Origin: an uncultured Spirochaetales bacterium
GTDB lineage: Bacteria; Myxococcota_A; UBA9160; UBA6930
Direction: 5' to 3'
Assembly (NCBI GenBank): GCA_964460485.1
Contig: CAYWRY010000001.1
Span: forward strand, 21,761 to 85,760
Length of the DNA stretch: 64,000 nucleotides
Shown: positions 1 to 37,293 of the stretch, one piece after another
How the letters are laid out: every line of letters starts with the position of its first letter
Numbering within the stretch: the stretch's first letter is position 1
Made by a program: the position numbers and the translations under genes
Notes under the pieces: generated by a model
What the model saw: the letters and a program-made list of their open reading frames with translations, nothing else
Databases searched by the model: none
What the model was told of the DNA's origin: nothing

Positions 1-167
1 AGCCAGCCGATCTGCGGGCCGTTGCCGTGGGTGACGACCACGGCATGCTCGCGCGCGAGCGCGGCGACGATCTCGGCGGCGCGCGCGACGGCGGTCTGCT
101 GCTGGGCGAGGGTGGCGCCGCCCGGCGGCGCCAGCGCGTGTCCGCCCAGCGCGACCACGAGCCTCAC
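1..167 (-). CDS. arcC: carbamate kinase, N-terminal part only (gene continues past the left edge)
   Basis: Not in the ORF track because there is no stop in the window. The reverse complement of 1..167 reads (GTG)RLVVALGGHALAPPGGATLAQQQTAVARAAEIVAALAREHAVVVTHGNGPQIGWL. This is an amino-acid-kinase N-terminus with the GNGPQ(V/I)G motif typical of carbamate kinase. The GTG at 165-167 overlaps the upstream stop (GTGA). Confidence 0.65.
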   Translation of the reverse strand, partial: MRLVVALGGHALAPPGGATLAQQQTAVARAAEIVAALAREHAVVVTHGNGPQIGW

Positions 168-2333: not shown

Positions 2334-2349
2334 TGCAAGCGTAGTGCCG
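2334..2349 (-). promoter_or_regulatory. sigma-54 (-24/-12) promoter candidate for the CBS-DksA operon
   Basis: Minus strand reads CGGCACTACGCTTGCA (GGCAC-N5-TTGCA, GG to GC spacing exact). There are 36 nt between the GC and the start codon at 2298, and that stretch contains the GGAGGA RBS. Confidence 0.7.
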
Positions 2350-7076: not shown

Positions 7077-8266
7077 TGCGATACGCAGCGGGAGTCGCGC
7101 TGGCGACTGGGCTCTCGTTGCTCTCGTGGGCCGCGCGCGCGGAAGCTCCGTCCGATCCGGATGCCGCCGCGCGCGCGGCCATGCAGCGCGTCTACGCGGC
7201 GATGACCGTGCTGTTGCCGGCCTCGGCGAAGGACGGCGGCTTCTCGGATCCCGCGCAGCGCGAGCAGCTGCGCGGCGCGTTCGAGACGCTGCGGGGGGCG
7301 GCCGTCGACCTGCGCGCCCACGGCACGAGCCGCGACGCGAGCTTCGGCCTGCACGCGAGCAACCTCGCCGACGACGCGCTGAACGCCAGCAGCGCCTTCG
7401 CCCTCGGCGACGAGGAGGAGGCGCGCTTCGCCTTCACGTTGCTGACCCAGCGCTGTACCGACTGCCACTCGCGGCTTCCCGACGTACAGGACTCGCCGCT
7501 CGCCGCGCGGCTCGTGCAGCTTCCGGAGGTGAAGGCGCTCGCTCCGCTCGAGCGCGCGCGCGTCGACGTCGCGCTGCGGCGCTTCGACGAGGCGCTCGCC
7601 ACCTGGGAGCAGGCATTTTCCGAGCCGGCGATCCCGCCCGCGGAGCATGAGCTGGCGGGCACGCTGGCCGACTATCTGACGATCGCGCTGCGCGTGAAGG
7701 CCGACGCGCAGCGCCCGCAGGCGGTGCTGCGCAAGTTGGCGAATCGTCCGGACGCGCCGGGCTATCTGCGCAACCGGTTGGTGGCGTGGGCGGTCTCGCT
7801 CGCCCGCGTCGGAGCGGAGCTCGCCCAGTCGACGCCTTCCATCCAGCACGCCCGCGAGTGGGCGATGATGGCGCGCAACCTGTCGGACCTGCCGACCGCC
7901 CGCGACGGGTTGGTCTACGACCTGGCGGCGTCGAGCCTCTTGCTGCGCTGGATCGACGCGCGCGAGAAGGGCAGTCGGGCGCCGCAAGACCTCGAGCTGG
8001 CGACCGCGTACTACGAGCTGGCGGTGATCGAAGACCGCACGGCGTTCTCGATCTGGGCGCCGCGCACGGACGTGTACATGGAGGCGGCGGTGCGCGCCGC
8101 GCCCTCGGGCCCGCTCGCGCGCCGTGCCTACGCGCGGGTCGAGGAGCAGCTCATGACCGAGCTGGGCGCGACCAGCCCCGACGGCTTGCCCGAGCCCGAA
8201 CGCGCGCGCCTCGCGGCGCTGCGCGCGCTGGTCGAGGGCGCCCACGCCGGCGGCAAGGCGAAGTAG
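7073..8266 (+). CDS. secreted helical protein with a single CxxCH motif (function unknown)
   Basis: Full ORF, 397 aa. ATGA overlap with the hsp20 stop. Signal peptide [25 protein letters not shown] and a CTDCH motif. Alignable along its whole length to 30882..32117 (CAGCH). Confidence 0.75.
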
Positions 8267-13105: not shown

Positions 13106-13121
13106 CGGCACGTCGCTTGCT
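13106..13121 (+). promoter_or_regulatory. sigma-54 promoter candidate for the APH/AAA kinase gene
   Basis: CGGCACGTCGCTTGCT, a near-consensus GGCACG-N4-TTGCT. There are 28 nt to the ATG at 13149, with GGGAGG in between. Confidence 0.7.
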
Positions 13122-13148: not shown

Positions 13149-14837
13149 ATGTCCGAGGACGGCCTGACTCCCGCCCAGCTCGCCTCGCTCGCGACCGCCG
13201 CCGCGTACCCGGGCGACCCGAGCGCCGCGGGCGGCGTGCGCTGGATCCAGACGCATCTCTCCCACGTGTTCCTGACGAGCGATCGCGTCTACAAGCTGCG
13301 CAAGGCGACGCGCCTCTCGTTCGTGGACTTCGCTGCGCGCGCCGAGCGCAACGCCGACTGCCTGCGCGAGGTCGCACTGAACCGCCGACTGGCGCCGGAC
13401 GTGTACCTCGGCGTCGCGCCGGTGCGCGCGGCGGGGCAGCGGGTCGAGATCGGCCCGGTCGGCGAGGCCCTCGTGCCGGGCTGCGAGCACGTGGTCGTGA
13501 TGCGGCGGCTGCCGGAAGGCGCCGACGCGCTCTCGCGGCTCGAGCGCGGCGCGCTCGGCGCGCGAGATCTCGACCTCGTCGCCGCGCGCATCGCGGCCTT
13601 CCACGCCGCGCACGGTCTCGGTGCACCAGCGCCCTTCGCGGCGGCGGAGTGGGCGTCGCGCGTCGCGGCGCCGATGCGAGGGAACGTGGCGTCGCTGCGC
13701 GAGTCGGCGCGCGTGCGGGTCGCCGCGAGCGCGGAGGTGGAGGCCCTCGCCGCGGAGACCGAGCGCGCGATCGCCGCGCACGCCGGGGCGATCGAGCGCA
13801 GGCGCTGCGAGGGCCGCGCGGTCGAGGGCCACGGCGACCTCCACCTCCAGCACGTCTGGTTCGAGGCGTCGCCTGACAGCCCAGACGCGCCGCCACGCCT
13901 CTCGCTGATCGACTGCCTCGAGTTCAAGGAAGAATGGCGCCAGATCGACGCCGCGAGCGAGGTGGCGTTCCTGGCCATGGATCTCGCGTACCGCGGCGCT
14001 CGCCCGCTCGGCGAGCGCTTCCTGCGCAAGTACGCCGCGCTGCGCGACGACTTCGGCCTCTACGACGTCGTGGACTTCTTCGTCGCCTATCGCGCCGCCG
14101 TGCGCGCGAAGGTGGCCGCCTTGGCGGCCTGTGATCCCGCGATCGCGCCGGGGCAGCGCGAGCGCGCCGTGGAGAGCGCGGCGCGACACCTGGCGCTCGC
14201 GCGCGAAGCGCTGCGGCCGCCCGCGGCTGCGCCGCTGCTCGTCGTGTGCGGCAGCGTGGGCACGGGCAAGAGCACCCTCGCGGAGGAACTCGCCGACGCG
14301 ACCGGCGGCGCTGTCGTCTCGTCGGACCGCACGCGCAAGGCGCTCGCGGGCATCGCTCCCGAGAGCCGCGCGCAGGCGCGCGCGGGCGCTCCGCTCTACG
14401 CCGACGCCGTGACCGACCGCGTCTACGCCGCGCTGCTGGAGCGCGCCGCCCCCGTGCTCGGCTCGGGGCGCGCCGCCGTGCTCGACGCCACGTTCGCGCG
14501 CGCGAAGCACCGCCTGGCCGCGCGCGACTTCGCCGCGGCGCGCGGCGTTCGCGCGCTGCTGGTCGAGGCGACCTGCGACGAGGCCGTCGCGCGCGAGCGC
14601 GTCGCCCGCCGCGCCGCGCTCGGTGCCGATCCTTCCGATGCAGGACCCGAACGCGTCGCGCCGAGTCGCGCGGCCTTCGAGCCGATCCGCGAATGGCCCG
14701 CCGCAGACCGACTCTCGGTCCGGACGGATTCCGGCACGGCGGACGAGCGAGCTGCGGCCCTACGGATTTGGGTCGAGGCGCATTCGGCTGGGCGCCCGCC
14801 AGATCCTCCGGCCGGCGCGCGGGCTCCTTTCGCCTGA
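13149..14837 (+). CDS. bifunctional aminoglycoside-phosphotransferase-like / P-loop (AAA) ATP-binding protein
   Basis: C-terminal 562 aa of ORF 12663..14837. The APH-type kinase motif HGDLHLQHVWF and IDCLEF are followed by a P-loop, VCGSVGTGKSTLA. Confidence 0.8.
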   Translation: MSEDGLTPAQLASLATAAAYPGDPSAAGGVRWIQTHLSHVFLTSDRVYKLRKATRLSFVDFAARAERNADCLREVALNRRLAPDVYLGVAPVRAAGQRVEIGPVGEALVPGCEHVVVMRRLPEGADALSRLERGALGARDLDLVAARIAAFHAAHGLGAPAPFAAAEWASRVAAPMRGNVASLRESARVRVAASAEVEALAAETERAIAAHAGAIERRRCEGRAVEGHGDLHLQHVWFEASPDSPDAPPRLSLIDCLEFKEEWRQIDAASEVAFLAMDLAYRGARPLGERFLRKYAALRDDFGLYDVVDFFVAYRAAVRAKVAALAACDPAIAPGQRERAVESAARHLALAREALRPPAAAPLLVVCGSVGTGKSTLAEELADATGGAVVSSDRTRKALAGIAPESRAQARAGAPLYADAVTDRVYAALLERAAPVLGSGRAAVLDATFARAKHRLAARDFAAARGVRALLVEATCDEAVARERVARRAALGADPSDAGPERVAPSRAAFEPIREWPAADRLSVRTDSGTADERAAALRIWVEAHSAGRPPDPPAGARAPFA

Positions 14838-14839
14838 AC

Positions 14840-14855
14840 GGGCACGCGGGATGCA
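14840..14855 (+). promoter_or_regulatory. sigma-54 promoter candidate for cfa-oxidoreductase
   Basis: GGGCACGCGGGATGCA (GGCACG-N4-ATGCA), starting 3 nt after the upstream stop. There are 50 nt to the ATG at 14905, with GGAGGGGAGG in between. Confidence 0.5.
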
Positions 14856-14904
14856 GATAGGCTGTGCGGGCAGGGGGTGGCGAGGACGCAGGAGGGGAGG
14901 TCCG

Positions 14905-16104
14905 ATGGCTCGGTTCCCAATGGCCCCACTCGCAAAGGCATGCGCCGCACGCATCCACCGCGCGCTCGGGAGCCCGCCGCTCCGCATGGAGCTGCCGGCA
15001 GGCGAGGCGGTGGGCCCTCCCGCCGGAGCGGCGGTCGCAACCCTGCGCTTCCGCGACCTGCGCGCGCCCCTCGCCCTGGCGCTGGATCCGGACTTCGCGC
15101 TCGGCGAGCTCTACGCGCGCGGCCGGATCGAGGTCGACGGATCGCTCGTCGAGCTGCTCTGTCTCACCGACCGCGTGCCCACCGGCACGGGTCCGCTCGG
15201 CCGACTGCTCGCGCGGCGCTCGCCGCCGGGCGCGTCGCGCCAGGCGCTCGGGCGGGCGGCCGGCAACGCGCGCCGTCATTACGACGTGGGCAACGAGTTC
15301 TACGCGCTCTGGCTCGACGAGCGCATGGTCTACACCTGCGCGTACTTCGCGCAGCCGGGCATGACGCTCGAGGAAGCGCAGCTCGCGAAGCTCGACCACG
15401 TCTGCCGCAAGCTGCGGCTGCGTCCGGATCAGCGCGTGCTCGAGCTCGGCTCCGGCTGGGGCGCCCTCGCGATCCACATGGCACGCCGCTTCGGGGCGCG
15501 CGTGCGCGCCTTCAATGTTTCGCTCGAGCAGGTGAGCTGGGCGCGCGAGCAGGCGGAGAAGCAGGGCGTGGCCTCGCGCGTGGAGTTCGTGCTCGACGAC
15601 TACCGAAACGCGGCAGGCCGATACGACGCGCTCGCCTCGGTGGGCATGCTCGAGCACGTGGGCCCGGCCCACTACGAGGAGCTGGGGCGCGTGATCGCGC
15701 GAACGCTCGCGCCCGAGGGGCTCGGGCTCATCCACACGATCGGGCGCTCGCGCCCGCAGCCGCTCAACCGCTGGGTCGCGACGCGCGTCTTCCCGAACGC
15801 CCATCCGCCGTCGCTCTCCGAGATGATGCGCATCTTCGAGCCGCAGGACTTCGCCGTGCTCGACGTCGAGAATCTGCGCCTCCACTACGAGCGAACCGCG
15901 ACCGAGTGGCTCGCACGCTACCAGCGCAATCGGCGCTTGATCGCCGAGCGCGTGCCGGAGGAGACGGCGCGCGGCTTCGAACTCTATCTCGCCGGCACCG
16001 TCGCCGCGTTCCGCTGCGCGTGGATGTGCCTCTATCAGGTCGTGTTCACGCGCGCGAAGAACGCGGCGATTCCGTGGACGCGCGCCGACCTCTACAGCCA
16101 CTAG
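14905..16104 (+). CDS. cfa: cyclopropane-fatty-acyl-phospholipid synthase family SAM methyltransferase
   Basis: C-terminal 399 aa of ORF 14623..16104. Contains HYDVGNEFYALWLD, YTCAYF, the SAM motif VLELGSGWG and MLEHVG. Confidence 0.85.
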   Translation: MARFPMAPLAKACAARIHRALGSPPLRMELPAGEAVGPPAGAAVATLRFRDLRAPLALALDPDFALGELYARGRIEVDGSLVELLCLTDRVPTGTGPLGRLLARRSPPGASRQALGRAAGNARRHYDVGNEFYALWLDERMVYTCAYFAQPGMTLEEAQLAKLDHVCRKLRLRPDQRVLELGSGWGALAIHMARRFGARVRAFNVSLEQVSWAREQAEKQGVASRVEFVLDDYRNAAGRYDALASVGMLEHVGPAHYEELGRVIARTLAPEGLGLIHTIGRSRPQPLNRWVATRVFPNAHPPSLSEMMRIFEPQDFAVLDVENLRLHYERTATEWLARYQRNRRLIAERVPEETARGFELYLAGTVAAFRCAWMCLYQVVFTRAKNAAIPWTRADLYSH

Positions 16105-16114
16105 GGCCGGGTTC

Positions 16115-17218
16115 GTGGAGCGCGTGGACGTGCTGATCGTCGGCGGCGGCCCCGCCGGGTCGTCGCTCGCGTTTGGGCTGCGCGGCAGCGGGCTGCGCGT
16201 GCGCGTGATGGACCGCGCGCGCTTCCCGCGCGACAAGACCTGCGCCGGCTGGGTGACGCCGGCAGTGTGGAGCGCGCTGGGAATCGATCCCGCCGCGTAC
16301 GCGGCCGCGGGCCGCACGCTCCAGCCGATCCGCGGCTTCGAGATTCGCCGCATGGGCGACGCACCCGCCCGCGCCCGCAGCGACGCGGTCGTCAGCCACG
16401 GAATCCGCCGCTGCGAGCTCGACGCTTTCCTCCTCGCGCGCTGCGGGGCCGAGCTGCGTCTCGGCGAGGGCGTGCGCGCGATCGAGCGAGCCGCGGACGG
16501 CTGGAGCGTGAACGGCGAGGTCCATTCGCGCCTCGTCGTCGGCGCGGGAGGTCATTTCTGTCCGGTGGCCCGAGCGCTGCAGGCCGGGCAGCCCAAGGAG
16601 CAGCCGATCGCGGCGCAGGAGCTGGAGCTGCCGATCTCCGCGGACGAGATCCGCGCGATCGGCGTCGACGCGGAGCTGCCGGAGATCCAGTTCACGCGCG
16701 ACCTCGCCGGCTACGCGTGGGTGTTTCGCAAGGGCGACTACTTGAACGTCGGGCTCGGGCGCCGCGGAGGCACGAGCGTCGGCGCCGAGCTGCGCGCTTT
16801 CCTGCGCGCGCGCGGGCTGCCGGAAGCGTGGAGCGGCGCCGTGAGAGGTCACGCGTACCTCACGTACGGCTCGACGCGCCGCCCGCTCGTGCGCGAGCGC
16901 GTCGCGCTCGTTGGAGACGCCGCCGGCCTCGCCTATCCGAAGAGCGGGGAAGGGATCCGGCCGGCGGTGGAGTCGGGCTTGTTGCTGGCGCGCGCGATCG
17001 CGCGCGCTGGCGACCCGGGCGATCCGCGCGCGCTCGCCGCCTACGAGCGCGCGCTGCTCGCGCGCTTCGGCGTGCGCGGCGACGGCGCAGCCCAGGGCGG
17101 CGTTGCGCGCTGGGAGGCTGCGGTCGCCGGGCGGCTCTTCGCGAGCCGCTGGTTCGCGCGGCGCGTGGTGGTGGACCGCTGGTTCCTGAACGCGGGGCAG
17201 GCTGCGCTCGCGGCCTAG
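16115..17218 (+). CDS. geranylgeranyl-reductase-family FAD-dependent oxidoreductase
   Basis: Full ORF, 367 aa, GTG start. Contains DVLIVGGGPAGSS, CAGWV and LVGDAAGLAYPKSGEGI. Confidence 0.8.
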   Translation: MERVDVLIVGGGPAGSSLAFGLRGSGLRVRVMDRARFPRDKTCAGWVTPAVWSALGIDPAAYAAAGRTLQPIRGFEIRRMGDAPARARSDAVVSHGIRRCELDAFLLARCGAELRLGEGVRAIERAADGWSVNGEVHSRLVVGAGGHFCPVARALQAGQPKEQPIAAQELELPISADEIRAIGVDAELPEIQFTRDLAGYAWVFRKGDYLNVGLGRRGGTSVGAELRAFLRARGLPEAWSGAVRGHAYLTYGSTRRPLVRERVALVGDAAGLAYPKSGEGIRPAVESGLLLARAIARAGDPGDPRALAAYERALLARFGVRGDGAAQGGVARWEAAVAGRLFASRWFARRVVVDRWFLNAGQAALAA

Positions 17219-17280: not shown

Positions 17281-17526
17281 TCAGCGGGCGCGCGCAGCGA
17301 CGTAGGCCGCCGCTGCGTCGAGCGTCGCGACCTGCGCGTAGTCCGACTCCGGTACGTCGACGCCCGTGCGCTCGTGGATGGCGACGAGGGCGTTCAGGAA
17401 GTCCAGCGAGTCGATGTCGAGCTGCTCGCGAAGGTCGGCGCGCGGGTCGACGGCCGAGAAGTCCACCTCCGGCGCGTAGCGCGCGAAGACCTCGCACAGG
17501 AGCGCGCGCGCCTCGGAGTTCGTCAT
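17281..17526 (-). CDS. acyl carrier protein (phosphopantetheine-binding)
   Basis: C-terminal 81 aa of ORF 17281..17670. ATGA overlap with the E2 stop. Contains the DIDSLDFLNALVAI Ser attachment motif. Confidence 0.8.
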   Translation of the reverse strand: MTNSEARALLCEVFARYAPEVDFSAVDPRADLREQLDIDSLDFLNALVAIHERTGVDVPESDYAQVATLDAAAAYVAARAR

Positions 17527-18833
17527 GCCAGCTTCTCCGGCTCGAGCAGGGCGCGCTCCAGTGCCCTGAGAAACACTGCACCGCGGTGGCCGTTGCTCAC
17601 GCGATGATCGGCGGCCAGCGTCGCCTGCACGATCGTGCGCACGCACAGTCCGCCCTCGCGATCCACCCACGGTCGCGGCGCAGGCGCGCCGAAGCCGACG
17701 ATCGCCACCTGCGGCGGGTAGATCACGGCGTGCACCGAGTCGACGCCGCCGTCACCGAGGCTCGTGACCGTGAGCGTTGCGCTCGCCATCTCCGAGGCGC
17801 GCAGCTTTCCGCTGCGCGCGCGCTCGCCGAGCTCGCGCAGCGCGCGCATCAACTCGCCGAGCGGCTTCGCGCCGGCGTCGAGGATCGCCGGCGCCACGAG
17901 GCCGCCGCCGCGCAGCGCGATCGCAACGCCCAGATGCAGCGCGGGCGCCGCGCGGAACGCGCCGCGCTCGTAGTGGCCGTTCAGCTCCGGCACCGCCGGC
18001 AGCGCCAGCGCGACGGCGCGTAGCAGCAGCGCCGCGGGCAGGATGCGCTCGGCAACCGGACGCTCGCGGTTGCGCGACTCGAGCCACGCGAGCGCGGGGG
18101 TGAGATCGAGGGCCGCGCTCAGGTAGTAGTGGGGGATCTCGCGCTTCGAGCGCTCCATCAGCGCCGCGATCACCCGCTGTCGCGAAGCGCTGCGGTCGGC
18201 GGCGGGCTGGGGCGGCGCAGAGGGGGGAGGAATCGGCGTCACTGCCTGCACGGCAGCGCTCCTGGGCGCGGCGCTTGCCGCCGCACGCACGTCGTCGGCG
18301 GTGATCGCGCCGCCGGGCCCGCTTCCGGCGAGGCGCGCAAGCTCGACGCTCAGCTCGCTCGCGAGGCGTCGCGCGAGGGGCGTCGCGTGCAGACGTTCGC
18401 CCGTCGGCGTCGCGCCGGCTGGCGGTGCGGGCCGGCGCGCGCCGAGCGGCGGCGGCGCGTCTGCGCGAAGCGGCGCGCCCAGGGGCGGCGGTGCTGCCGC
18501 CGCGGGAACTGCGGCCGCACGCGCGGGCTCGGGCGCTGCGGCGATCGCCCCGGGCGCCGTCGCTCGCGCGGCGCCCCCGCCGCGAATCAGCGCCAGCGGC
18601 CCGCCGACGGGCACCTTGTCGCCGACGGACGCGATCAGCCGCTCGACCACGCCGTCGTCGAAGATCTCCACCTCCATCTCGGCCTTCTCGGTCTCCACGT
18701 CGACGACGATGTCGCCGCGGGCGACGCGATCGCCGGGCGCGACGCGCCAAGCGAGGACGGTGCCCGTCTCCATGTCCGCGCCGAGCGAGGGCATCAGGAA
18801 CTCGCGCGTCGCGGCGGCGCTCGCCTCAGCCAC
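17523..18833 (-). CDS. 2-oxoacid dehydrogenase E2 (dihydrolipoamide acyltransferase)
   Basis: Full ORF, 436 aa. Lipoyl domain [13 protein letters not shown], an Ala/Pro linker, an E3-binding-like segment and the catalytic DHRVSNG. Confidence 0.9.
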
Positions 18834-19806
18834 GGCGGCCGACCGTGGCCTCAGCGGCTGCGACGATCCGCGCGACGGAGGGAAGCGCGGCGTCCTCGAG
18901 GTGCTTCGCGTACGGCACCGGCACTTCGGCGCTGCACACGCGCGCGACTGGGGCGTCGAGCTCGAAGAACGCCCGCTCCTGGATGCGCGCCGCGATCTCC
19001 GCCGAGAGGCTGCCGCTGCGCCAGCCCTCGTCGACGACCACGGCGCGGTGAGTGCGCGCCACCGCCGCGAGGATCGCCGGCTCGTCGAGCGGCCGGAGCG
19101 AGCGCAGGTCGAGCACGCGCGCGGAGATGCCGCGCTGCGCGAGCGCTGCCGCGGCCTCGAGCGTCTTCGGCAGCGAGCTGCCGTAGCTGATCAGCGCCAC
19201 GTCGTCGCCTTCGCGCCGGATGCGCGCGTCGTGGATCGAGACCGGTCCAGCGTCCTCGGGCAGCTCGCCCTCGGCGTTCAGCAGCGCGGTGGCTTCGAAG
19301 ATCAGCACGGGGTTCGGATCGCGCAGCGCGGTGGCGAGCATGCCGTAGGCGTCCTCGTGGGTTCCCGGCGCGAGCACCTTGATGCCGGGAATGTGCGCGT
19401 ACCAGCCTTCGAGACTGTGGGAGTGCTGCGCGGCGAGCTGGCGGCCGCCCCCGGTCGCCATGCGGATCACGAGCGGCACCGCGAGCTGGCCGCCGGACAT
19501 GTGCAGCAGCGTCGCCGCGTTGTTCACGATCTGGTCGAGCGCCAGGAGGCTGAAGTTCACGGTCATGATCTCGACGATCGGGCGCATGCCGTTCAAGGCC
19601 GCGCCGATGCCGGCGCCGACGAAGGCGGACTCGGAGAGCGGCGTGTCGCGCACGCGCTCCGGGCCGAACTCGGCGAGCAGCCCCTTGCTCACCGCGAAGC
19701 AGCCGCCGTAGGCGCCCACGTCCTCGCCCATCAAGAAGACGCGCTCGTCGCGCGCGAGCGCCTCGCGCAGCCCGCGCCGCAGCGCCTCGCGGTAGCTGAG
19801 CTTCAC
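18826..19806 (-). CDS. 2-oxoacid dehydrogenase E1 beta subunit
   Basis: C-terminal 326 aa of ORF 18826..20892. GTG at 19806 (GTGA overlap) with GGAGG upstream. Contains [15 protein letters not shown] and [20 protein letters not shown]. Confidence 0.9.
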
Positions 19807-20777
19807 GACGCCTCCGCGAGCACGAAGCGCTCGAGATCTTCGAGCGGCTCGAGCGGCGCGGCCTCCGCGAAGGCAACCGCGTCGGCGAGCTCGCCGGCGA
19901 TCTCGCGCTCCAGGGCTTCCTGGGCGGCGTCGTCCCAGGCGCCGGCCGCGCGAAGGGACGCCGCGAGCGCCGCGATCGGATCGCGCCGCTTCCACTGCTC
20001 GACCTCGGCCTTGTCTCGGTAGAGCTCGGGGTCGTACATCGAGTGCGCGCGGAAGCGATAGGTGCGCAGCTCGAGGAAGCACGGCGCGCCGCCGCGCGCA
20101 TAGGCGACCGCGCGTCGGGCCGCCGCGTCCACGGCGAGCGCATCCATGCCGTCGACGCTCCACGCGGGCATCTCGTAGCTCGCCGCCTTGATCGCGAGAT
20201 TCGTCTCCGACTCCGAGCGCGCGAGCGCGGTGCCCATCGCATAGAGATTGTTCTCGCAGCAGAAAACCACCGGCAGCTGCCAGAGCGCGGCGAGGTTCAT
20301 GGACTCGTGGAACTCGCCCTCGGCCATCGCACCCTCGCCGAAGAAGCAGGCGGTCACGCAGGGCCGCGCGCGCATGCGGTCGGCGAGCGCGATGCCGACT
20401 GCGAGTGGGATCCCGCCGCCCACGATCGCGTTGCCGCCGTAGAAGCGCTTCGACGCGTCGAACAGGTGCATCGAGCCGCCGCGCCCGCGGCTGCAGCCGG
20501 CAACCTTGCCGAACATCTCCGCCATCAGCGCGCGCATGGAGAGGCCGCGCGCGAGCGCGTGGCCGTGCTCGCGGTAGGTGGAGACGACCCCATCCTCCGC
20601 CGCGAGCGCGCCCATCACGCCGGCCGCGACCGCCTCTTCGCCCACGTACAGGTGCAGGAAGCCGCGGATCTTGCTCGCGGAGTAGAGCTCCGCGCACTTC
20701 TCCTCGAAGCGCCGGATGCGCAGCATCTCGCGCAGCAGCGCGCGCCCGCGCTCGCTCGCGCCGGCGGGCGCGCTCAC
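19803..20777 (-). CDS. 2-oxoacid dehydrogenase E1 alpha subunit (TPP-dependent)
   Basis: C-terminal 324 aa of ORF 19803..21755. GTG at 20777 (GTGA overlap). Contains [19 protein letters not shown] and the TPP motif [33 protein letters not shown]. Confidence 0.9.
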
Positions 20778-22528
20778 GACTCCGGCTCCAGGGTCGAGAG
20801 GTCGCCTTCGGGCAGGCCGAGCTCGCGCGCCTTGAGCAGGCGGCGCAGCACCTTGCCGCTGCGCGTCTTCGGCAGCGCGTCGACGAAGGCAATCTCCTTC
20901 GGCGCCACCGCGGGCCCGAGCCGCGCGCGCGCGAAGCCGAGCAGCTCGCGAAGCAGCGCCTCGCTCGGGGCGACGCCCGGCCGCAGGGCGACGAAGGCCT
21001 TGATCACCGCGCCGGCGATCGGGTCGGGCTTCCCGATCACGCCGGCCTCGAGCACGGCCGGGTGAGCCATCAGCGCGCTCTCCACCTCGAAGGGGCCGAC
21101 GAGGTGCCCGGAGGACTTGATCACGTCGTCCGCCCGGCCCACGAACCAGTAGTAACCGTCGGCGTCGGCGCGCACGAGGTCGCCGGACAGGTACCAGCCG
21201 TCCGCGAAGCACTTGCGGTAGCGCTCCTCCTCGCCCAGGTAGGCGCGGAACATCGACGGCCAGCCCGCGCGCAGCGCGAGCTCGCCCTGCGCATCCGGCT
21301 CCGTCAGCACGCGCACCCGGTCGCCCTCGCGCGCGATCACGGCGGCCTCGATCCCCGGCAGCGGCTTGCCCATCGAGCCGGGCTTGATCGGGAGCGCCGC
21401 GTAGTTCGCGACCATGATCCCGCCGGTTTCCGTTTGCCACCAGTTGTCGTGGATGGGCAGCCCGAACGCCTCGATGCCCCAGTGCACGGCCTCGGGGTTC
21501 AGCGGCTCGCCTACGCTCGCAACGAAGCGCAGCGCCGGCAGCCGTCGCTCGCGCGCGAGCGCGCTGCCCGCCTTGATCAGCATGCGCACCGCGGTGGGCG
21601 CCGTGTACCAGACGCTCACGCGCTCGCGCTCCAGCGTCTCGTACCAGCGGCGCGGCTCGAACTCGGCTTCGTCGACGATGGACGTGAGGCCGAGCGCGAG
21701 CGGCGCCACGATTCCGTAAGAAGTGCCCGTCACCCAGCCGGGATCGGCCGTGCACCAGAACACGTCGCCGGGCTGGAGGTCGAGGGCGAAGCGCGCCGTC
21801 GCCACGTGCGCAACGACCGCTTCGTGCACGTGCAGGGCGCCCTTCGGCTTGCCCGTGGTGCCGCTGGTGAAGTGCAGCAGGGCCGGGTCCTCGGGCCGCG
21901 TGGGTGCGATCGCATGCTCCGGCTTCTCCGCCGCGAGCAGTGCGTCGAGATCGAGCGTGCCCGGCGGCAGCGTCTCGCCGGGAGCGCAGCCCGCGAGCAG
22001 CACGTGGGCGAGCCCCGGCACGCGCGCTCGGATGGGCGCGACCTTGCGCGCGTAGAGAGCGGGGGTCGTGACGAGCACGCGGCCGTCGCCGAGCGCGAGC
22101 CGCTGCTGGACCGGCTCGGGGCCGAACGCCGAGAACATCGGGCAGAAGACCGCGCGCTGGCGGAGCGCTCCGAGCGCCGCGACGTAGAGCGCCGGGATCC
22201 GGCCCGCGAGCGTGAAGACGCGCTCGCCCGGGGCGACGCCCAGCCGCGCCAGCAGGTTCGCGAAGCGGGCCGCGTACCCCGTCAGCTCGCGGAACGTGAG
22301 GTCCCGCGGCGCGCCGCTCTTGGGCAGCCAGCGCAGCGCCACGCGGTTCGCGTTCGCTCCGCCGGCGTGCCGGTCGAGCGCCTCGTGAGCGATGTTGAGG
22401 CCCGCGCCGCCGGGCAGCCCGTCGAGCAGGCTCCGCGCGTCACTCCAGCGGAAACGCGCGCGCTCTCGCTCGTAATCGGCGAGGTTGGGCGGACGCACCA
22501 GGGACTTCTCGATCGTTCCGGACGCCAC
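20774..22528 (-). CDS. AMP-forming acyl/acetyl-CoA synthetase
   Basis: Full ORF, 584 aa, GTG start. Contains [27 protein letters not shown] and [11 protein letters not shown]. Confidence 0.9.
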
Positions 22529-22540
22529 GGCCTGGCGCGG

Positions 22541-22556
22541 AGCAAGCCGCGTACCG
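22541..22556 (-). promoter_or_regulatory. sigma-54 promoter candidate for the acs-E1-E2-ACP operon
   Basis: Minus strand reads CGGTACGCGGCTTGCT with exact spacing and a perfect -12. Only 13 nt lie between the GC and the GTG at 22528, so the transcript would be essentially leaderless. Confidence 0.55.
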
Positions 22557-24661: not shown

Positions 24662-24723
24662 TCTCCGCTGGCTCCCCGGATGGCGCCACCGGGCGGGCCG
24701 CGCGCCCCGAGCCGAGGTCGAGT

Positions 24724-24739
24724 CGGCATGGCCGATGCA
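24724..24739 (+). promoter_or_regulatory. sigma-54 promoter candidate for the PRT-malic enzyme operon
   Basis: CGGCATGGCCGATGCA. There are 26 nt to the ATG at 24765, with AGGAGG at 24753-24758. Divergent from 24646..24661. Confidence 0.55.
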
Positions 24740-24764
24740 CAATCGCCCGCGCAGGAGGGCGCGC

Positions 24765-25409
24765 ATGTTCGAGAACCGCAGCGACGCGGGCCGCCAGCTC
24801 GCGAGGCGCCTCGCTCGCTTCCGGGGCCACGACGTCGTCGTGCTCGCCCTCCCGCGTGGCGGCGTGCCGGTCGCGTTCGAGGTTGCGCAGGCGCTCGGCG
24901 CTCCCCTCGATTTGCTGCTCGTACGAAAGCTCGGCGCGCCGGGGCACCCGGAGCTCGCCGCCGGTGCGATCGTGGACGGCGAGACGCTCGAGATCGTCGC
25001 CAACGAGGACGTGCTGCGGCTGACGGGTGCGGACCACGCGTTTCTCGAGCGCGTCGCGCAGCGCGAGCTCGCCGAGCTGGAGCGCCGCCGCGCGCTGTAC
25101 TTGGGCGCGCGGCCGCCGCTCGCGGTGAAGGGCCGGACGGCGATCGTCGTCGACGACGGCGTGGCGACCGGTGCGACGGTGCGCGCCGCGCTGCGGGGCC
25201 TGCGCCGGCGCGCGCCCGCGCGCGTCGTGCTCGCCGTGCCGGTGGCTGCGCCGGAGGCGCTCGCGTCGCTCGCCGCCGAAGCGGACGAGACCGAGTGCCT
25301 CGAGGCGCCCGCGAGCTTCGGCGCCGTGGGCTCCTTCTACCGCGACTTCCGCCAGACCGGCGACGCGGAGGTGATCGCGCTGCTGGAGCGCGCAGCGAAG
25401 CCGGCATGA
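24765..25409 (+). CDS. phosphoribosyltransferase-family protein
   Basis: C-terminal 214 aa of ORF 24477..25409. Contains MFENRSDAGRQLARRL...VVVLALPRGGVPVA and the PRPP-binding loop AIVVDDGVATGAT. Confidence 0.8.
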   Translation: MFENRSDAGRQLARRLARFRGHDVVVLALPRGGVPVAFEVAQALGAPLDLLLVRKLGAPGHPELAAGAIVDGETLEIVANEDVLRLTGADHAFLERVAQRELAELERRRALYLGARPPLAVKGRTAIVVDDGVATGATVRAALRGLRRRAPARVVLAVPVAAPEALASLAAEADETECLEAPASFGAVGSFYRDFRQTGDAEVIALLERAAKPA

Positions 25410-30456: not shown

Positions 30457-30472
30457 GGCAATCGTCGTGCCG
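30457..30472 (-). promoter_or_regulatory. sigma-54 promoter candidate for the hemerythrin-CBS-ATPase operon
   Basis: Minus strand reads CGGCACGACGATTGCC (GGCACG-N4-TTGC, near consensus). There are 36 nt to the GTG at 30421. Confidence 0.7.
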
Positions 30473-30881: not shown

Positions 30882-32117
30882 TCACGGCTGCGCCTGGCGC
30901 AGCCCGGCGAGCGCGCGCAGCTCGGCGAGCCAATCGGTCACGTCGCGCGGGACGTCGAGCCCGGCCGAGCCCATCCAGCCGAGCACCGTCTGCTCCTCGA
31001 GCACGCCGTAGGCGTCGCGCGCGATGTCGCTGTTCGGCGCCGCGCGGATCGCGCTCTCGAGATAGGCCTCCGCCTGCGGCAGACCGCGGGACGGGTCGTT
31101 GCGGAGCTCGGCGAGGCCGAGCAGGTAGCTCGCCTCCGCGCGCTCGTCGGGGTTCGCGAGGCCGCGCGCGAGCGCGCGGTGCAAGAGCGCCGAGGCGACC
31201 AGGTCGTGCACGAGCGCGCTCCGATCCGCGGGAAAGCGCCGGCGCGCCTCCGCCTTGGCCAGCACCTCGCGCGCCTCGACCAGCGTCGAGGCCTGCTCGT
31301 AGGGAGCGAGTTGAGCCAGCGCCTCGCGCCAGCTCGCGAAGAGCTGGCCGAGATAGGGCGGGGCGTCGCCGCGCGCGGCGAGCGCCGCCAGCATGCGTCC
31401 TGCGCGCGCATAGTCGCTGCGCACGCGCAGGGCGACCACCAGGTAGTCCTCGAGCGCGCCCTCGAAGTCGAGCGCCGAGAGCGAGGTCGAGCGCGCGGCG
31501 AAAAGCTTCTCGTAGGTTTCGAGCGCTGCGTCGAACTGGCGCGTTGCGATCAGCAGCCGCGCGCGCGCGGTGGGCGGCGCGCTCTGCATGCGCGCGGTGA
31601 GCGGGACGCCCACCGCGTGCTCGCGGGGATCGGGCAGGCGCACGTGACAGCCGGCGCAGTCGTCCACCACCTGGTTCAGCAGGAAACGCGCCTCGTCGGA
31701 GCTGCCCGCCTGAAAGCGCTTCGCGATCTCGGTCGCGTCCTCGGAGAGCCGGCGGGCGAAGAATCGGAAGCCGGGCGTGTCGTCGCCCCCGTGGAGCTCG
31801 AGCGCCGAGGCGTTGCGGGAGAGCTCGCGCAGCGCGCCGCGCAGCTCCTCGCGCGCGGCGGGCGAGGCGAACGTCTCCTGATCCTGTGCGTACGGCAGTG
31901 CGATCTCGAGCGCCGAGACGATGCCCACCATGCGCGCGGGGGTGTTCGGCAGCTCCTCGGCCGCCGGCTGCTGAGGCGCACAAGCGGTCGAGGTGGCGAA
32001 CAGGACGACGAAAGAGAATGGGACGAAACGCCCCGCTCCGCGTCCGATCGCCTCGATGCGCGCCCCGCCATCGCAGCTCGCCACGTGCGCCGCCCCCGCC
32101 GTTTCCGAGTCCTTCAC
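30882..32117 (-). CDS. secreted/lipoprotein-like helical protein with a single CxxCH motif (paralog of 7073..8266)
   Basis: C-terminal ~411 aa of the 1448-aa track ORF 30882..35228. GTG at 32117 sits 9 nt after GGAGG; an alternative GTG lies at 32084. Hydrophobic FVPFSFVVLFATSTAC, then DDCAGCHVRLP. Collinear similarity to 7073..8266 runs to the C-terminus (...LAELRALAG vs ...[10 protein letters not shown]). Confidence 0.7.
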   Translation of the reverse strand: MKDSETAGAAHVASCDGGARIEAIGRGAGRFVPFSFVVLFATSTACAPQQPAAEELPNTPARMVGIVSALEIALPYAQDQETFASPAAREELRGALRELSRNASALELHGGDDTPGFRFFARRLSEDATEIAKRFQAGSSDEARFLLNQVVDDCAGCHVRLPDPREHAVGVPLTARMQSAPPTARARLLIATRQFDAALETYEKLFAARSTSLSALDFEGALEDYLVVALRVRSDYARAGRMLAALAARGDAPPYLGQLFASWREALAQLAPYEQASTLVEAREVLAKAEARRRFPADRSALVHDLVASALLHRALARGLANPDERAEASYLLGLAELRNDPSRGLPQAEAYLESAIRAAPNSDIARDAYGVLEEQTVLGWMGSAGLDVPRDVTDWLAELRALAGLRQAQP

Positions 32118-32864: not shown

Positions 32865-33776
32865 ATGCTGATGCGAACGACGCGCCTGGCAGTGCACTGC
32901 TTTCCGGATTCGCTCGTGTTCGCTCGCAAGCTCGCGAGCGCGCTCGGGGCCACCCTCTCGCGCGTCGCGCTGCATTACTTCCCCGACGGCGAGACGCGCG
33001 TGCGAATCGAGCCCGGCAGCGGGGACGCGCTGCTCGTTCGCTCGCTGCACGATCCCAACGCGAAGCTGTTCGAGCTGCTGCTCGCGGCGTCGGCGCTGCG
33101 CGAGGGCGGCGCGCCCAGCGTCACGCTGGTCGCCCCCTACCTGCCGTACATGCGGCAGGACCGCGCCTTCGCGCCCGGAGAGGCCGTGTCCCAGCGCGTG
33201 CTGGGTCGACTGCTCGGCAGCAACTTCGAGCGCGTGATCTCCGTCGAGCCGCACCTGCACCGCATTGGCTCGCTCGCCGAGGTGTTCCCCTGCGAGACGC
33301 TCGCGCTCTCGGCGGCGCCGGCGATCGCGCGCTGGCTCGCCGCACAGCGCGAGCCCTGCTGGGTGGTGGGCCCCGACGAGGAATCGGAGCGCTGGGTGCG
33401 CGCGATCGGCGAGGCGGCGAAGCTGCCGCACGCGGTCGCGAGGAAGCAGCGCGCAGGCGACGACGCGGTGCTCGTCAGCTTGCCGCGCGGAGTGCGCGCT
33501 CCCTGTGCGCGCGCGGTGATCGTGGACGACATCGCCAGCTCCGGCGCCACCCTCGCAGCCGCTGCGCGCGCCCTCTACGAGGCCGGCGCAGAGTCCGTCG
33601 ACGCGGTCGTCGCCCACGCGATCTTCGCGCCGGGCGCGGAGGCGCGGCTGCGCGAGGCGCGCATCGGGCGCTTCGTCTCCTGCGACACGCTTCCGCATCC
33701 GACCAATGCAATCGAGGTGGCGGGCATCATCGCCGACGCCCTGCTCGCGGGCTCGGTCGCCCACGCGACCGTCTGA
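32865..33776 (+). CDS. ribose-phosphate pyrophosphokinase (PRPP synthetase) family protein
   Basis: Full ORF, 303 aa. Contains YFPDGETRVRI, LVAPYLPYMRQDR and the PRPP loop VIVDDIASSGATL. Confidence 0.8.
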   Translation: MLMRTTRLAVHCFPDSLVFARKLASALGATLSRVALHYFPDGETRVRIEPGSGDALLVRSLHDPNAKLFELLLAASALREGGAPSVTLVAPYLPYMRQDRAFAPGEAVSQRVLGRLLGSNFERVISVEPHLHRIGSLAEVFPCETLALSAAPAIARWLAAQREPCWVVGPDEESERWVRAIGEAAKLPHAVARKQRAGDDAVLVSLPRGVRAPCARAVIVDDIASSGATLAAAARALYEAGAESVDAVVAHAIFAPGAEARLREARIGRFVSCDTLPHPTNAIEVAGIIADALLAGSVAHATV

Positions 33777-35267
33777 ATGTTCCGCCTGAAGCGCATGTGC
33801 ATCGACACGCTCTCGGAGCACGTCGTGTTCATCCACGAGAGCGCCGTCGCGGAGGGCCGCCTCGGCTTCCAGCCCCTCGACCGCGTGCGCCTCCTCGACG
33901 GCAACGGCCGCGAGCTGACGGGTGTCCTCAACTTCTGTCGAGACGCGCTGTTGGCGCGCGACGAGATCGGGCTCTCCGACGTCGCCTTCCGCGACTTCGG
34001 GCTTCCGGAAGGGGCGCGCGTGCGCGCGACCCAGGCACCCGCACCCGACAGCGTCGAGCACGTGCGGCACAAGCTGCGCGGCGGCCGCCTCGCGCGCGCG
34101 GACTTCGACGCCGTGCTGCGCGACGTGTGCGCTCGCCGCTACTCGAAGCCCGAGCTCTCGATGTTCGTGCTCGCCTGCTCGCTGCGGCAGCTCGACCGGG
34201 CCGAGCTGGTGGCGTTCACCGAGGCGATGGTCGCCTGCGGCTCGCGGCTGGCCTGGGACGCCGAGGTCGTCGTCGACAAGCATTCGATCGGCGGCGTGCC
34301 GGGGAATCGCACCACCATGGTCGTGGTGCCGATCGTGACGTCGCTGGGCCTCACCATGCCGAAGACGTCGTCTCGCGCGATCACGAGCCCGAGCGGAACC
34401 GCGGACACGATGGCGACGCTTGCGGAGGTCGCGCTCTCGCCGGAGACCATTCGCCGCGTTGTGGAGCAGACCGGCGGCTGCATCGCCTGGGGCGGCGCCC
34501 TCGACCTGGCGCCGGCGGACGACGTGCTGATCACCGTCGAGCGCCCGATGGGCATCGACACCGAGGCGCAGATGATCGCGTCGATCCTCTCGAAGAAGAA
34601 GACGGCGGGCGCGACCCACGCGCTGATCGACGTGCCCGTGGGACCGAGCGCGAAGGTGCGCAGCCACCGCGCCGGAGAGGAGTTGGCCGAGCTGTTCCGC
34701 CACGTGGGCGAAGCCGTCGGGCTCACGCTCGACGTCGTGCTGACGGAGGCGCACGGGCCGATCGGCTGCGGCGTCGGGCCGCGCCTCGAAGCGCTCGACG
34801 TGCTCGCGGTGCTGGAGCGCAAGCCCGACGCGCCGCGCGACCTGCGCGAGAAGAGCCTGTTCCTCGCGGCGCGGCTGCTCGAGCGCGCGGGCGCCGTGCC
34901 CGACGCGGGTGGCTACCGCGCGGCGCAGGAGGCGCTCGACTCGGGCGCCGCCCTCGAGCGCTTCTCGGCGATTCGCGCGCTCCAGGGAGCGCGCGACCTC
35001 CCGCCGCCCGCGCCCTTCACGGCCGTCGTGCCCGCGCCCAGCGACGGCCGCGTCCGCGCGCTGGATTGCCTGCGCATCGCGCGCATCGCGAGGCTCGCCG
35101 GCGCGCCGGCGAATCCCGCGGCGGGGCTGCGTGTGCTCTGCCGCGTGGGCGACGTGGTCGCGCGCGGCGAGCCGCTGCTCGAGGTCCACGCGCTGAGCGA
35201 GGCGCAGCTCGGCTTCGCGGTGGCGCACGCCGAGCAGGCGCCCGACCTCGTCGAGATCGGGTTCTGA
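33777..35267 (+). CDS. thymidine phosphorylase family protein of the AMP-phosphorylase-like type (long N-terminal domain)
   Basis: Full ORF, 496 aa. The ATG immediately follows the upstream stop. The N-terminal ~90 aa are collinear with the archaeal AMP phosphorylase N-domain as I recall it. Core motifs: DKHSIGGVPGNRTT, SSRAITSPSGTADT and SKKKTAGA. Confidence 0.8.
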   Translation: MFRLKRMCIDTLSEHVVFIHESAVAEGRLGFQPLDRVRLLDGNGRELTGVLNFCRDALLARDEIGLSDVAFRDFGLPEGARVRATQAPAPDSVEHVRHKLRGGRLARADFDAVLRDVCARRYSKPELSMFVLACSLRQLDRAELVAFTEAMVACGSRLAWDAEVVVDKHSIGGVPGNRTTMVVVPIVTSLGLTMPKTSSRAITSPSGTADTMATLAEVALSPETIRRVVEQTGGCIAWGGALDLAPADDVLITVERPMGIDTEAQMIASILSKKKTAGATHALIDVPVGPSAKVRSHRAGEELAELFRHVGEAVGLTLDVVLTEAHGPIGCGVGPRLEALDVLAVLERKPDAPRDLREKSLFLAARLLERAGAVPDAGGYRAAQEALDSGAALERFSAIRALQGARDLPPPAPFTAVVPAPSDGRVRALDCLRIARIARLAGAPANPAAGLRVLCRVGDVVARGEPLLEVHALSEAQLGFAVAHAEQAPDLVEIGF

Positions 35268-36786: not shown

Positions 36787-37293
36787 TCACCGCCTCCACG
36801 TCACGCGCACGAGGTTTTCGCGCGACGAGGCCGGGACGCGCAGCGTGCCGCGGTGGGCGCGGCGGAGCGCAGCCCCGATCCCGCGCGCCAGCTTGGAGTC
36901 GGTGGTCGCGATCTCGAGGCCGTCGGCCGTCGCCTGGATCGACGCGATGCGCTTCAGCGGGTGCTCGGCGCGCTCGCGCTCTTCGACGTTGCGCGCCAGG
37001 TGCTCGAGCTCTTCGCGATGCTCGGCGACGTACGCACCATGCATCTCCACCACGCCCGCCGGATAGCCGTCCGCGATGCGCTTGCAGGCAGGGCACACCA
37101 CCGGCGCCGCGTCGGCCGGAGCCGCCCCCCAGGCCCAGCGCCCGTTCCGGTAGATCGCGCGGCACTCGCTGCACGCGCTCGGGTCGGGAAGCTTGCGCCG
37201 CAGCGCATAGGGGTCCGAGCGCAGGGGCTTCTTCTGCGCATCCTGGCGCGGCAGGGATCCGGCAGCGTGAGTCTTCGAGCGTTGGCGTCGCAT
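36787..37293 (-). CDS. small Cys-cluster protein (CxxC...CxxC), BCAM0308-like
   Basis: C-terminal 168 aa of ORF 36787..37452. GAGGAGGA lies upstream of the ATG at 37293. CSECRAIYRNGRWAW...VCPACKRIADGYPAGVVEM. The family name is from memory of an NCBI label and needs checking. Confidence 0.65.
   Translation of the reverse strand: MRRQRSKTHAAGSLPRQDAQKKPLRSDPYALRRKLPDPSACSECRAIYRNGRWAWGAAPADAAPVVCPACKRIADGYPAGVVEMHGAYVAEHREELEHLARNVEERERAEHPLKRIASIQATADGLEIATTDSKLARGIGAALRRAHRGTLRVPASSRENLVRVTWRR

Follow-up and report, generated by a model that had tools for sequence, protein, structure and literature searches.

In the biosynthesis of quinocarcin (QncN/QncL/QncM) and scleric acid (SclQ1-4), an E1-like protein, an E2-like protein and an acyl carrier protein (ACP) make glycolyl-ACP (PMC6335953), and these systems are the closest precedent for handing an acyl group from an E1/E2 pair to an ACP. 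Here we compare them, and other described systems, with a five-gene cassette that encodes an acetate-activating ligase of the acetyl-CoA synthetase type (ACS), the alpha and beta subunits of a pyruvate dehydrogenase (PDH)-type E1, a dihydrolipoyl acetyltransferase (E2) and an ACP. The cassette was found in a window of 64,000 nucleotides, the whole stretch analysed, from an uncultured Spirochaetales bacterium (lineage Myxococcota_A; UBA9160; UBA6930; assembly GCA_964460485.1, contig CAYWRY010000001.1, positions 21,761 to 85,760 of the forward strand); coordinates below are those of the window unless a locus is named. It is real and recurs near-unchanged across hundreds of bacterial species in about ten phyla, in low-oxygen stress islands. 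Its acetyl groups probably travel on a carrier protein of its own and not on CoA alone, and we tentatively propose that E2 and the ligase share the ACP as acetyl carrier, with a net conversion of pyruvate via acetyl-ACP into acetate and ATP.

Comparison with described systems

Like the Qnc and Scl loci, the cassette encodes together a thiamine diphosphate (ThDP)-dependent E1-type enzyme, a lipoyl E2-type protein and a small ACP, with no lipoamide dehydrogenase (E3) in the cluster (PMC6335953). The Qnc and Scl enzymes deliver the acyl group to the ACP rather than to CoA (PMC6335953), whereas such a transfer is only predicted for the cassette. The Qnc and Scl genes lie in Streptomyces clusters for nonribosomal peptide synthetases (NRPS), with a ketose phosphate as substrate, a glycolyl unit as product and no ligase. 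In contrast, the cassette has an E1 alpha that scores as a true PDH E1 and an acetate ligase as obligatory partner. It is spread over many phyla in a stress island and is not embedded among NRPS or polyketide synthase (PKS) genes, none of which was found in the window or among recurrent flank families.

The cassette resembles the alpha-proteobacterial/mitochondrial-type PDH complex (PdhA, PdhB, PdhC, Lpd) in that its E1 subunits pass the PDH models, its E2 has the expected domains and the structures nearest to its E2 are E2p cores. Unlike in that complex, the E2 falls below the equivalog cutoffs, no E3 gene is nearby, and an ACS gene before and an ACP gene after the E1/E2 genes are coupled to them. 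The ligase likewise shares its ANL fold, acetate pocket, catalytic lysine and equivalent of Arg584 with Bacillus subtilis AcsA and Salmonella enterica Acs, but the equivalents of Arg526 and Arg580 are replaced and a carrier protein gene always stands alongside. The cassette shows most of the features that define a PDH complex and an Acs, but because one tested feature fails for each family, a neighbouring E3 in the first case and Arg526 in the second, it does not appear to be a plain member of either.

An ANL ligase encoded beside a carrier of about 80 residues is also found in DltA-DltC pairs, which are accompanied by the MBOAT protein DltB, DltD and DltX. The cassette differs from these in having no MBOAT, DltD or DltX, an ACP of another subfamily and a PDH-type E1/E2 as partner; the ligase-carrier-MBOAT arrangement is seen only in sister clades of its ligase.

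Two described systems bear on the energetics. AMP-forming Acs enzymes, exemplified by Acs1 of Syntrophus aciditrophicus, can convert an acetyl thioester, AMP and pyrophosphate (PPi) into acetate and ATP (PMC4992975, PMC13404658), which offers a precedent for energy conservation by this type of enzyme. Unlike the cassette ligase, SaAcs1 is a long-type Acs that uses acetyl-CoA without a carrier protein, and its directional bias has been put down to a CoA loop (G196/T197). The lxa locus of Burkholderia cenocepacia combines universal stress proteins (USPs), Hsp20, a cation ATPase and an RNase with an acetate-forming, ATP-yielding AckA-Pta branch, and the paper describing it makes no mention of PDH, ACS or ACP genes (PMC3721108). 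The low-oxygen theme is shared with the island around the cassette, but AckA-Pta, which works with CoA, occupies in lxa the place where the cassette stands. Pyruvate fermentation in Pseudomonas aeruginosa is likewise an acetate-forming, ATP-yielding branch by which an aerobe survives anoxia, and it too relies on AckA-Pta and CoA.

The five-gene operon

The cassette occupies five consecutive minus-strand open reading frames (ORFs) between 17281 and 22528, all supported by a coding-type G+C content at third codon positions in a window of 70-76% G+C:

20774-22528, minus strand: ACS, AcsA-type acetate-activating ANL ligase, 584 residues as called in public contigs (Pfam, NCBIfam)
19803-20777, minus strand: E1 alpha, ThDP-binding subunit of a PDH-type E1, 324 residues (PF00676, 1.9e-85; TIGR03182)
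18826-19806, minus strand: E1 beta, 326 residues (Transket_pyr and Transketolase_C, PF02779 and PF02780; NF006667)
17523-18833, minus strand: E2, dihydrolipoyl acetyltransferase, 436 residues (Biotin_lipoyl, E3_binding and 2-oxoacid_dh)
17281-17526, minus strand: ACP of a distinct subfamily, 81 residues (PP-binding, PF00550, 1e-08)

These identities had been assigned from the letters alone in a first-pass annotation, and Pfam and NCBIfam confirmed each of them. The translational coupling that it had described at three overlaps also holds, as the junction letters match at ACS/E1 alpha (GTGA, 20774-20777), E1 alpha/E1 beta (GTGA, 19803-19806) and E2/ACP (ATGA, 17523-17526). A fourth junction, absent from its list, joins E1 beta and E2 through an 8-nt overlap, GTGGCTGA, at 18826-18833.

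Both subunits of a heterotetrameric ThDP-dependent E1 of the PDH complex are present: E1 alpha scores 433.6 bits against the PDH E1 alpha model TIGR03182 (cutoff 393.85) and E1 beta 396 bits against NF006667 (cutoff 321) in NCBIfam. An acetoin dehydrogenase (AcoABC) was rejected, with E1 alpha passing the PDH equivalog and no Aco model; the AcoC model NF011457 covers only the lipoyl/linker part of E2, at 85 bits versus a cutoff of 307, which also counts against this assignment. The PGAP pipeline names the five genes acsA, pdhA, pdhB, "dihydrolipoamide acetyltransferase family protein" and "acyl carrier protein", and the cassette is invisible as a unit in annotation because each gene receives such an ordinary name. 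No paper describing the five-gene cassette was found in keyword searches of the literature.

The statement that operon and window lack an E3 stands: a tblastn search of the window with Escherichia coli Lpd, a probe checked by its full-length match to PDB 4jdr, gave a best E value of 0.35, and no Pyr_redox_dim-type protein is among the annotated island genes. Nor was an E3 homologue found within about 6-10 kb of the cassette in any of approximately 175 related loci. The third PDH component is missing at cassette loci and may be encoded elsewhere in the genome.

Conservation and spread

A scan with an ACP alignment, using one genome per species, gave at least 600 candidate stretches; 571 of the 600 listed encode an ACP relative, so that the subfamily is present in at least several hundred species-level genomes. 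Locus counts seeded on the ACP were taken from the best 80 loci, which represent, among others, Myxococcota/"Deltaproteobacteria", Binatia, Actinomycetota, Alpha-, Beta- and Gammaproteobacteria, Planctomycetota, Chloroflexota, Acidobacteriota, Verrucomicrobiota and Gemmatimonadota. In 63 of the 65 loci with room for it, E2 is the gene immediately before the ACP, and the five-gene synteny that the first-pass annotation had proposed to look for in other genomes is complete and in order in 48 of 50.

As a counter-check, metagenome loci were retrieved with E2 as the seed. The ACP follows E2 immediately in 72 of 76 loci with room, lies somewhat further off in two and is absent from two. Of the upstream genes, E1 beta is present in 59/61 loci, E1 alpha in 42/43 and ACS in 29/29. 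The 4-nt overlap of the E2 stop and ACP start codons recurs in 127 of 153 loci, and the two genes are at most 30 nt apart in 16 more. Adjoining E2 in about 95% of related loci from either seed, the ACP is no incidental neighbour, and the objection that the first-pass annotation had anticipated, namely that the ACP gene might not be conserved next to E2, therefore falls away.

Identities between phyla are high (ACS 60-74%, E1 beta 66-87%, E2 41-67%, ACP 43-81%), and two cultured bacteria carry the cassette on plasmids, namely Methylocystis rosea GW6 (pGW6_1, EHO51_RS19045-19065) and Tropicibacter oceani YMD87 (QF118_RS19415-19430). A match to the ACP is also present on a plasmid of Azospirillum oryzae, where it is unannotated. 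Together, the conserved gene order, these identities and the plasmid copies suggest that the cassette behaves as a mobile, strongly constrained module. On the T. oceani plasmid (L091, 5549-7546), the annotation merges E1 alpha and E1 beta into a single protein of 665 residues, and the genes after the ACP encode a small hydrolase, cytochrome c, a P-type ATPase and a sensor kinase with a PAS domain.

E2 and the acyl carrier protein

The E2 has the three domains of its family, comprising a lipoyl domain (Lys50), a peripheral-subunit-binding domain (PSBD) and a catalytic domain with the DHRVSNG histidine. Across 119 E2 sequences from cassettes, Lys50, the PSBD and the motifs IPHYYL, TVTSLG and DHRxx(D/N)G are retained, and the nearest solved structures are mitochondrial-type E2p cores; for these reasons the protein should be catalytically competent. 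It nevertheless scores below every NCBIfam E2 equivalog cutoff.

The ACP has a phosphopantetheine attachment site, with a PP-binding score of 35.8 (cutoff 20.8) and the D-S-L motif at residues 39-41, of which Asp39 and Ser40 are invariant in 25 homologues. Profile comparison with solved ACPs gives scores as high as 50 bits, mitochondrial ACPs being among the best matches, and by this measure the protein is an ordinary four-helix ACP of type II. It lies outside the housekeeping AcpP/AcpM equivalogs (best NCBIfam ACP score 31.9 versus cutoffs of 65-146) and forms a subfamily of its own with about 100 close homologues, marked by the motifs LDIDSxDFLN and VDVPExDY. None of the homologues listed has the length that a fusion would need.

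Since octanoyl-ACP is the normal donor for octanoylation of lipoyl domains, the ACP could instead supply octanoate for LipB-type modification of the cassette E2 when housekeeping supply is limiting. Its co-translation with a lipoyl protein and the mitochondrial ACPs among its best structural matches would fit such a role, but the ligase has an acetate-sized pocket (its WW motif is kept in 74/74 sequences) and ACS-ACP pairs exist without any E2, which makes this explanation highly improbable. In addition, neither LipA, LipB or LplA nor a phosphopantetheinyl transferase is among the annotated island genes, where not every ORF was scanned; LipA, LipB and LplA are also absent from the annotated window genes and from the annotated flank families of related loci, the remaining flank families being unannotated.

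The ligase

The ligase has the Pfam domains AMP-binding and AMP-binding_C and scores 864 bits against the acetate--CoA ligase model NF003313 (cutoff 729); its nearest solved relative is a B. subtilis-type AcsA (9g79, 547 bits). The two-domain ANL fold, the catalytic lysine of motif A10 and an acetate-sized pocket (equivalent of Trp414) are all present. Among 74 full-length cassette ligases, the WW of the acetate pocket, the catalytic Lys559 and the equivalent of S. enterica Acs Arg584 are each kept in all 74, and the V and VT equivalents of the pocket are kept in the ligase as well. Homologues fall into more than 8000 clusters at 90% identity with E values of at most 1e-60, and the best 120 listed are all at least 67% identical; no fusions were noticed among the ligase representatives.

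The arginines of the CoA-dependent step, which in S. enterica Acs are Arg191, Arg526 and Arg584, are not all conserved. In the window ligase Leu476 replaces the conserved arginine of motif A8, and the Arg526 equivalent is leucine in 72 of the 74 full-length sequences and never arginine in 99 tblastn segments, whereas AcsA, the 8rpk enzyme and S. enterica Acs all have arginine there. The Arg580 equivalent is leucine, isoleucine or methionine, and AcsA-type enzymes cannot be aligned over the Arg191 loop. Arg526 stabilizes the thioester-forming conformation; in the Acs of Methanothermobacter thermautotrophicus, the Ala variant of the same residue cannot be saturated with CoA, and kcat falls 130-326-fold when it is changed to Lys or Gln (PMC10455477).

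Leucine at this position extends to relatives of 37-50% identity among representatives clustered at 50% identity, and we therefore rejected the idea that it is a marker unique to the cassette. Genomic context was compared for five of these Leu-type relatives, leaving out P0242 and P0227, whose contigs are too short. P0247 lies in a Dlt-like operon with a DltD-like SGNH protein, a DltB-like MBOAT, a 38-residue DltX-like peptide ending in FIYTDF, a 79-residue carrier and the ligase; P0246 is followed by a PP-binding carrier of 77 residues, with an MBOAT nearby, and P0321 by one of 79 residues. In an Arg-type control with informative context, the next gene encodes a small membrane protein and not a carrier. 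The carrier-adjacent, AcsA-like relatives of the Leu type, at 37-45% identity, lie in two Dlt-like settings with an MBOAT (L175 and L177) and, directly before a carrier, on a 2-kb contig (L179).

In Dlt systems the ligase loads the carrier. Together with the adjoining carriers of the relatives, this makes the Leu-type clade, the cassette ligase included, look like ligases that join acetate or another small acid to a carrier protein.

The Dlt-like operons (L175, 129-4630; L177, 5001-10524) carry an AcsA-like (PRK04319-like, Leu-type) ligase in the place of DltA, and such a ligase is also encoded at the third locus (L179, 62-1936). We know of no description of such operons, which are presumably carrier-dependent O-acetylation or small-acyl systems.

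Reduced cassettes and the ACS-ACP pair

Some loci retain only part of the cassette. In a metagenome-assembled genome (MAG) of Dechloromonas (L076, 6247-8261) the ACS gene is directly followed by the ACP gene and both E1 and E2 are missing. The same pair, again without them, occurs in an Acidimicrobiales MAG (L083, 6211-10581), where a phosphoenolpyruvate (PEP) synthase gene comes next. A metagenome locus (L154, 5-2635) has ACS-E2-ACP without E1. Three loci lack the upstream cassette genes and have unrelated DNA in their place. ACS and ACP are the most constant pair of the cassette. As an observation apart, the MAG and metagenome loci L076, L083 and L154 could be natural dissections of the system, or could reflect decay or assembly artefacts.

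A mirror-tree analysis of pairwise distances in 55 loci, with partial correlations taken after removal of the other proteins, recovered the control contacts E1 alpha-E1 beta (0.54) and E1 beta-E2 (0.27). The partial correlation was 0.35 for ACS-ACP (bootstrap 0.19-0.47), 0.14 for E2-ACP (bootstrap -0.02 to 0.31) and 0.44 for ACS-E2. On account of this covariation, the loci with ACS and ACP alone, the clade-wide loss of Arg526 and the carriers beside sister ligases, the link of the ACP with the ACS is no weaker than its link with E2.

These data also bear on the most conventional account, in which the cassette encodes a CoA-dependent PDH isoenzyme for stress conditions and an ordinary acetyl-CoA synthetase, both making acetyl-CoA with the help of the housekeeping E3, and the ACP accepts acyl groups from neither but serves in regulation, scaffolding or sensing. 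The curated PDH and ACS cutoffs are indeed passed by E1 alpha, E1 beta and ACS, E2 keeps its lipoyl lysine, PSBD and catalytic histidine, Arg534, Lys559 and the acetate pocket are retained in the ligase, and E3 genes are often shared in trans. It would, however, leave unexplained why translational coupling of the ACP is seen in 127 of 153 loci from about ten phyla, why ACS-ACP pairs occur without PDH genes, why Arg526 is lost across the whole ligase clade and why Leu-type relatives are paired with carriers. We consider this account unlikely.

A proposed acetyl-ACP route

In the proposed mechanism the E1 alpha/beta enzyme, to judge by its family, would decarboxylate pyruvate and load the lipoyl arm of E2 by reductive acetylation. 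From E2 the acetyl group would pass to the ACP translated with it, at the phosphopantetheine thiol, with or without CoA as a second acceptor, a step suggested by the conserved coupling and by the Qnc precedent. In the third step the AcsA-like ligase would interconvert acetyl-S-ACP, AMP and PPi with acetate, ATP and holo-ACP, which we infer from the loss of the CoA-step arginine, the loci with only ACS and ACP, and the carrier-linked sister clades. Dihydrolipoyl-E2 would be re-oxidized by a housekeeping E3 encoded elsewhere, and the module would be expressed together with the low-oxygen/stress island around it.

As PDH and ACS share only an acetyl thioester, the only feasible order, if they act in series, is from pyruvate through the thioester to acetate and ATP. 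This direction, via acetyl-ACP, would also be the likeliest net flow when energy or oxygen is limiting, and would amount to an AMP-recycling analogue of the Pta-AckA pyruvate fermentation of other aerobes surviving anoxia. In several loci a PEP synthase is encoded beside the ACP; it would lengthen the route as far as PEP and add a second AMP-to-ATP step, and the malic enzyme, glutamate dehydrogenase and 2-hydroxyacid dehydrogenase of the window could take up NADH.

Several points weigh against this proposal. E2 is canonical in every motif checked, and in E2 cores the opening for CoA points into the central cavity, so that an ACP would need to get inside. The ligase passes the NCBI equivalog cutoff for acetate--CoA ligase and retains the arginine that contacts the 3'-phosphate of CoA (Arg534, 74/74) together with basic loop residues, so that CoA may remain a substrate. 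The canonical E2, the position of its CoA opening and this arginine also count against any other model with the ACP as acceptor. Two of the five informative Leu-type relatives (P0234 and P0339) lie in glycan clusters with no obvious adjacent carrier, and the mirror-tree correlations are weak evidence for five genes that share one history. A PDH generates NADH, which is awkward without oxygen. Every step of the acetyl-ACP scheme is a prediction, and the flux direction, the source of PPi and the sink for NADH are read from context only.

If the ACP is indeed the acyl acceptor, the textbook rule that PDH complexes and acetyl-CoA synthetases work strictly with CoA would need an exception. The Arg-to-Leu signature offers an easy way to predict from sequence which "ACS" enzymes depend on a carrier. 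Should the module yield ATP, soil and sediment aerobes would have in it a widespread, unrecognized route through anoxia and starvation, with a bearing on dormancy, persistence and the flux of carbon to acetate. A bolder version, possible though doubtful, is that the cassette represents a new form of substrate-level energy conservation: the PDH-type E1/E2 would load a private ACP, the remodelled AcsA-type ligase (Arg526 to Leu) would make acetate and ATP from it and, with PEP synthase working in reverse, PEP would be converted into acetate with AMP recycling for anoxic survival, insulated from the CoA pool and spread horizontally over about ten phyla and on plasmids.

A candidate promoter and the stress island

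The operon is preceded by a sequence of the sigma54 type:

22542-22555, minus strand: candidate sigma54 (-24/-12) promoter, GGTAC-N5-TTGC, directly upstream of the operon

The relaxed pattern GGYACNNNNNTTGC (GGYAC-N5-TTGC) has four matches in the window versus 0.44 expected, and none of 100 shuffled sequences reached four, whereas a scan for the strict pattern TGGCAC-N5-TTGC with one mismatch was not above chance. The four sites (2335-2348, minus strand; 13107-13120, plus strand; 22542-22555, minus strand; 30458-30471, minus strand) all sit just upstream of island operons and are correctly oriented. No sigma70-like promoter was found, the only terminator-like sites were chance ones inside genes, and no Rfam family was detected in the 10-32 kb part of the window.

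The called ACS start, GTG at 22528, is only 14 nt downstream of the end of the TTGC (-12) element. An alternative GTG at 22498 would give 574 residues and has GAGAAG 6 nt upstream, and many ACS homologues align only from residue 13-14. Given the candidate promoter at 22542-22555, the start at 22498 is probably the right one.

The cassette is located within an island of approximately 43 kb (1495-43000) that encodes tandem USPs, CBS proteins, HSP20, GroEL and a hibernation factor, as well as a P-type ATPase, a hemerythrin, a malic enzyme, a Glu/Leu dehydrogenase and a beta-CASP RNase; a 2-hydroxyacid dehydrogenase is also encoded in the window. A protoglobin-sensor histidine kinase (37463-38695, plus strand) is followed by a sigma54-dependent response regulator, an activator (38949-40238, plus strand). 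The presence of this pair and of the four sigma54-like elements upstream of island operons suggests that this low-oxygen/stress island forms a heme-sensor/sigma54 regulon.

Flanking genes

The flanks of about 111 related loci vary from one to the next yet draw on the same repertoire, which includes phosphoribosyltransferase (15 loci), PolX-like protein (12), GroEL, tandem USP and HSP20 (11 each), CBS protein (10), PEP synthase and phosphoribosyl pyrophosphate (PRPP) synthetase (9 each), and an NMD3-like protein and hibernation factor (8 each). The PEP synthase gene lies at most about 4 kb from the cassette in its nine loci and directly follows the ACP gene in three (L001, L080 and L083). No ketoacyl synthase (KAS) or acyltransferase family recurs among the flanks, and MBOAT is absent both from the window and from the recurrent flank families.

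Another possibility is that E1/E2, from pyruvate, and the ligase, from acetate at the expense of ATP, both load the same ACP for a consumer encoded elsewhere, for example a condensing enzyme that primes lipid or polyketide synthesis, or an envelope acetyltransferase. Such convergent acetyl-ACP supply is close to the idea of the first-pass annotation, which had thought of starter-unit or lipid modification, and it can claim the same ACP-coupling evidence as the acetyl-ACP route to acetate. Sister Leu-type ligases moreover work in the loading direction, feeding MBOAT/Dlt-like acyl transfer, and the Qnc and Scl systems make acyl-ACP as a building block (PMC6335953). No candidate consumer, however, is conserved beside the cassette, the KAS, MBOAT and acyltransferase families that might act as one are not recurrent, and the adjacency of PEP synthase is left unexplained. 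Spending two ATP equivalents per acetate would also be odd in an island for energy starvation. We regard convergent supply as conceivable but rather doubtful.

The first-pass annotation had also drawn attention to the neighbouring genes for a cyclopropane-fatty-acid (CFA) synthase and a geranylgeranyl-reductase-like flavoprotein. A functional link to them is not borne out: among 81 related loci of at least 9 kb, CFA synthase is near the cassette in one and the geranylgeranyl-reductase-like gene in none, and this lack of conservation removes the comparative support for a link. YkuD and M15 genes, which are near the cassette in none of the loci of that size, were set aside for the same want of comparative support. 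In the window, the convergent unit at 13149-17218 (plus strand) is part of the island; it encodes an AAA_33 kinase-like protein, the CFA synthase and the geranylgeranyl-reductase-family flavoprotein, and has its own sigma54-like promoter.

Further island genes have a bearing on nucleotide metabolism. A phosphoribosyltransferase gene (24663-25409, plus strand), a PRPP-synthetase-like gene (32925-33776, plus strand) and an AMP/thymidine-phosphorylase-like gene (33777-35267, plus strand; Glycos_transf_3 and PYNP_C, 496 residues) lie in the island, and the recurrence of phosphoribosyltransferase and PRPP synthetase near the cassette points to a nucleotide-salvage theme centred on AMP and PPi.

Three island proteins of 363-445 residues have a clear coding signal and no Pfam match (164-1501, minus strand; 7163-8266, plus strand; 30882-31973, minus strand), and the one of 445 residues recurs beside the cassette in four other loci. 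The PolX-like protein found near the cassette in 12 related loci combines HHH_8 with DNA_pol_B thumb and palm domains. A small NMD3-domain-like protein of about 156 residues (36787-37257, minus strand) recurs near the cassette in eight or nine related loci from other phyla.

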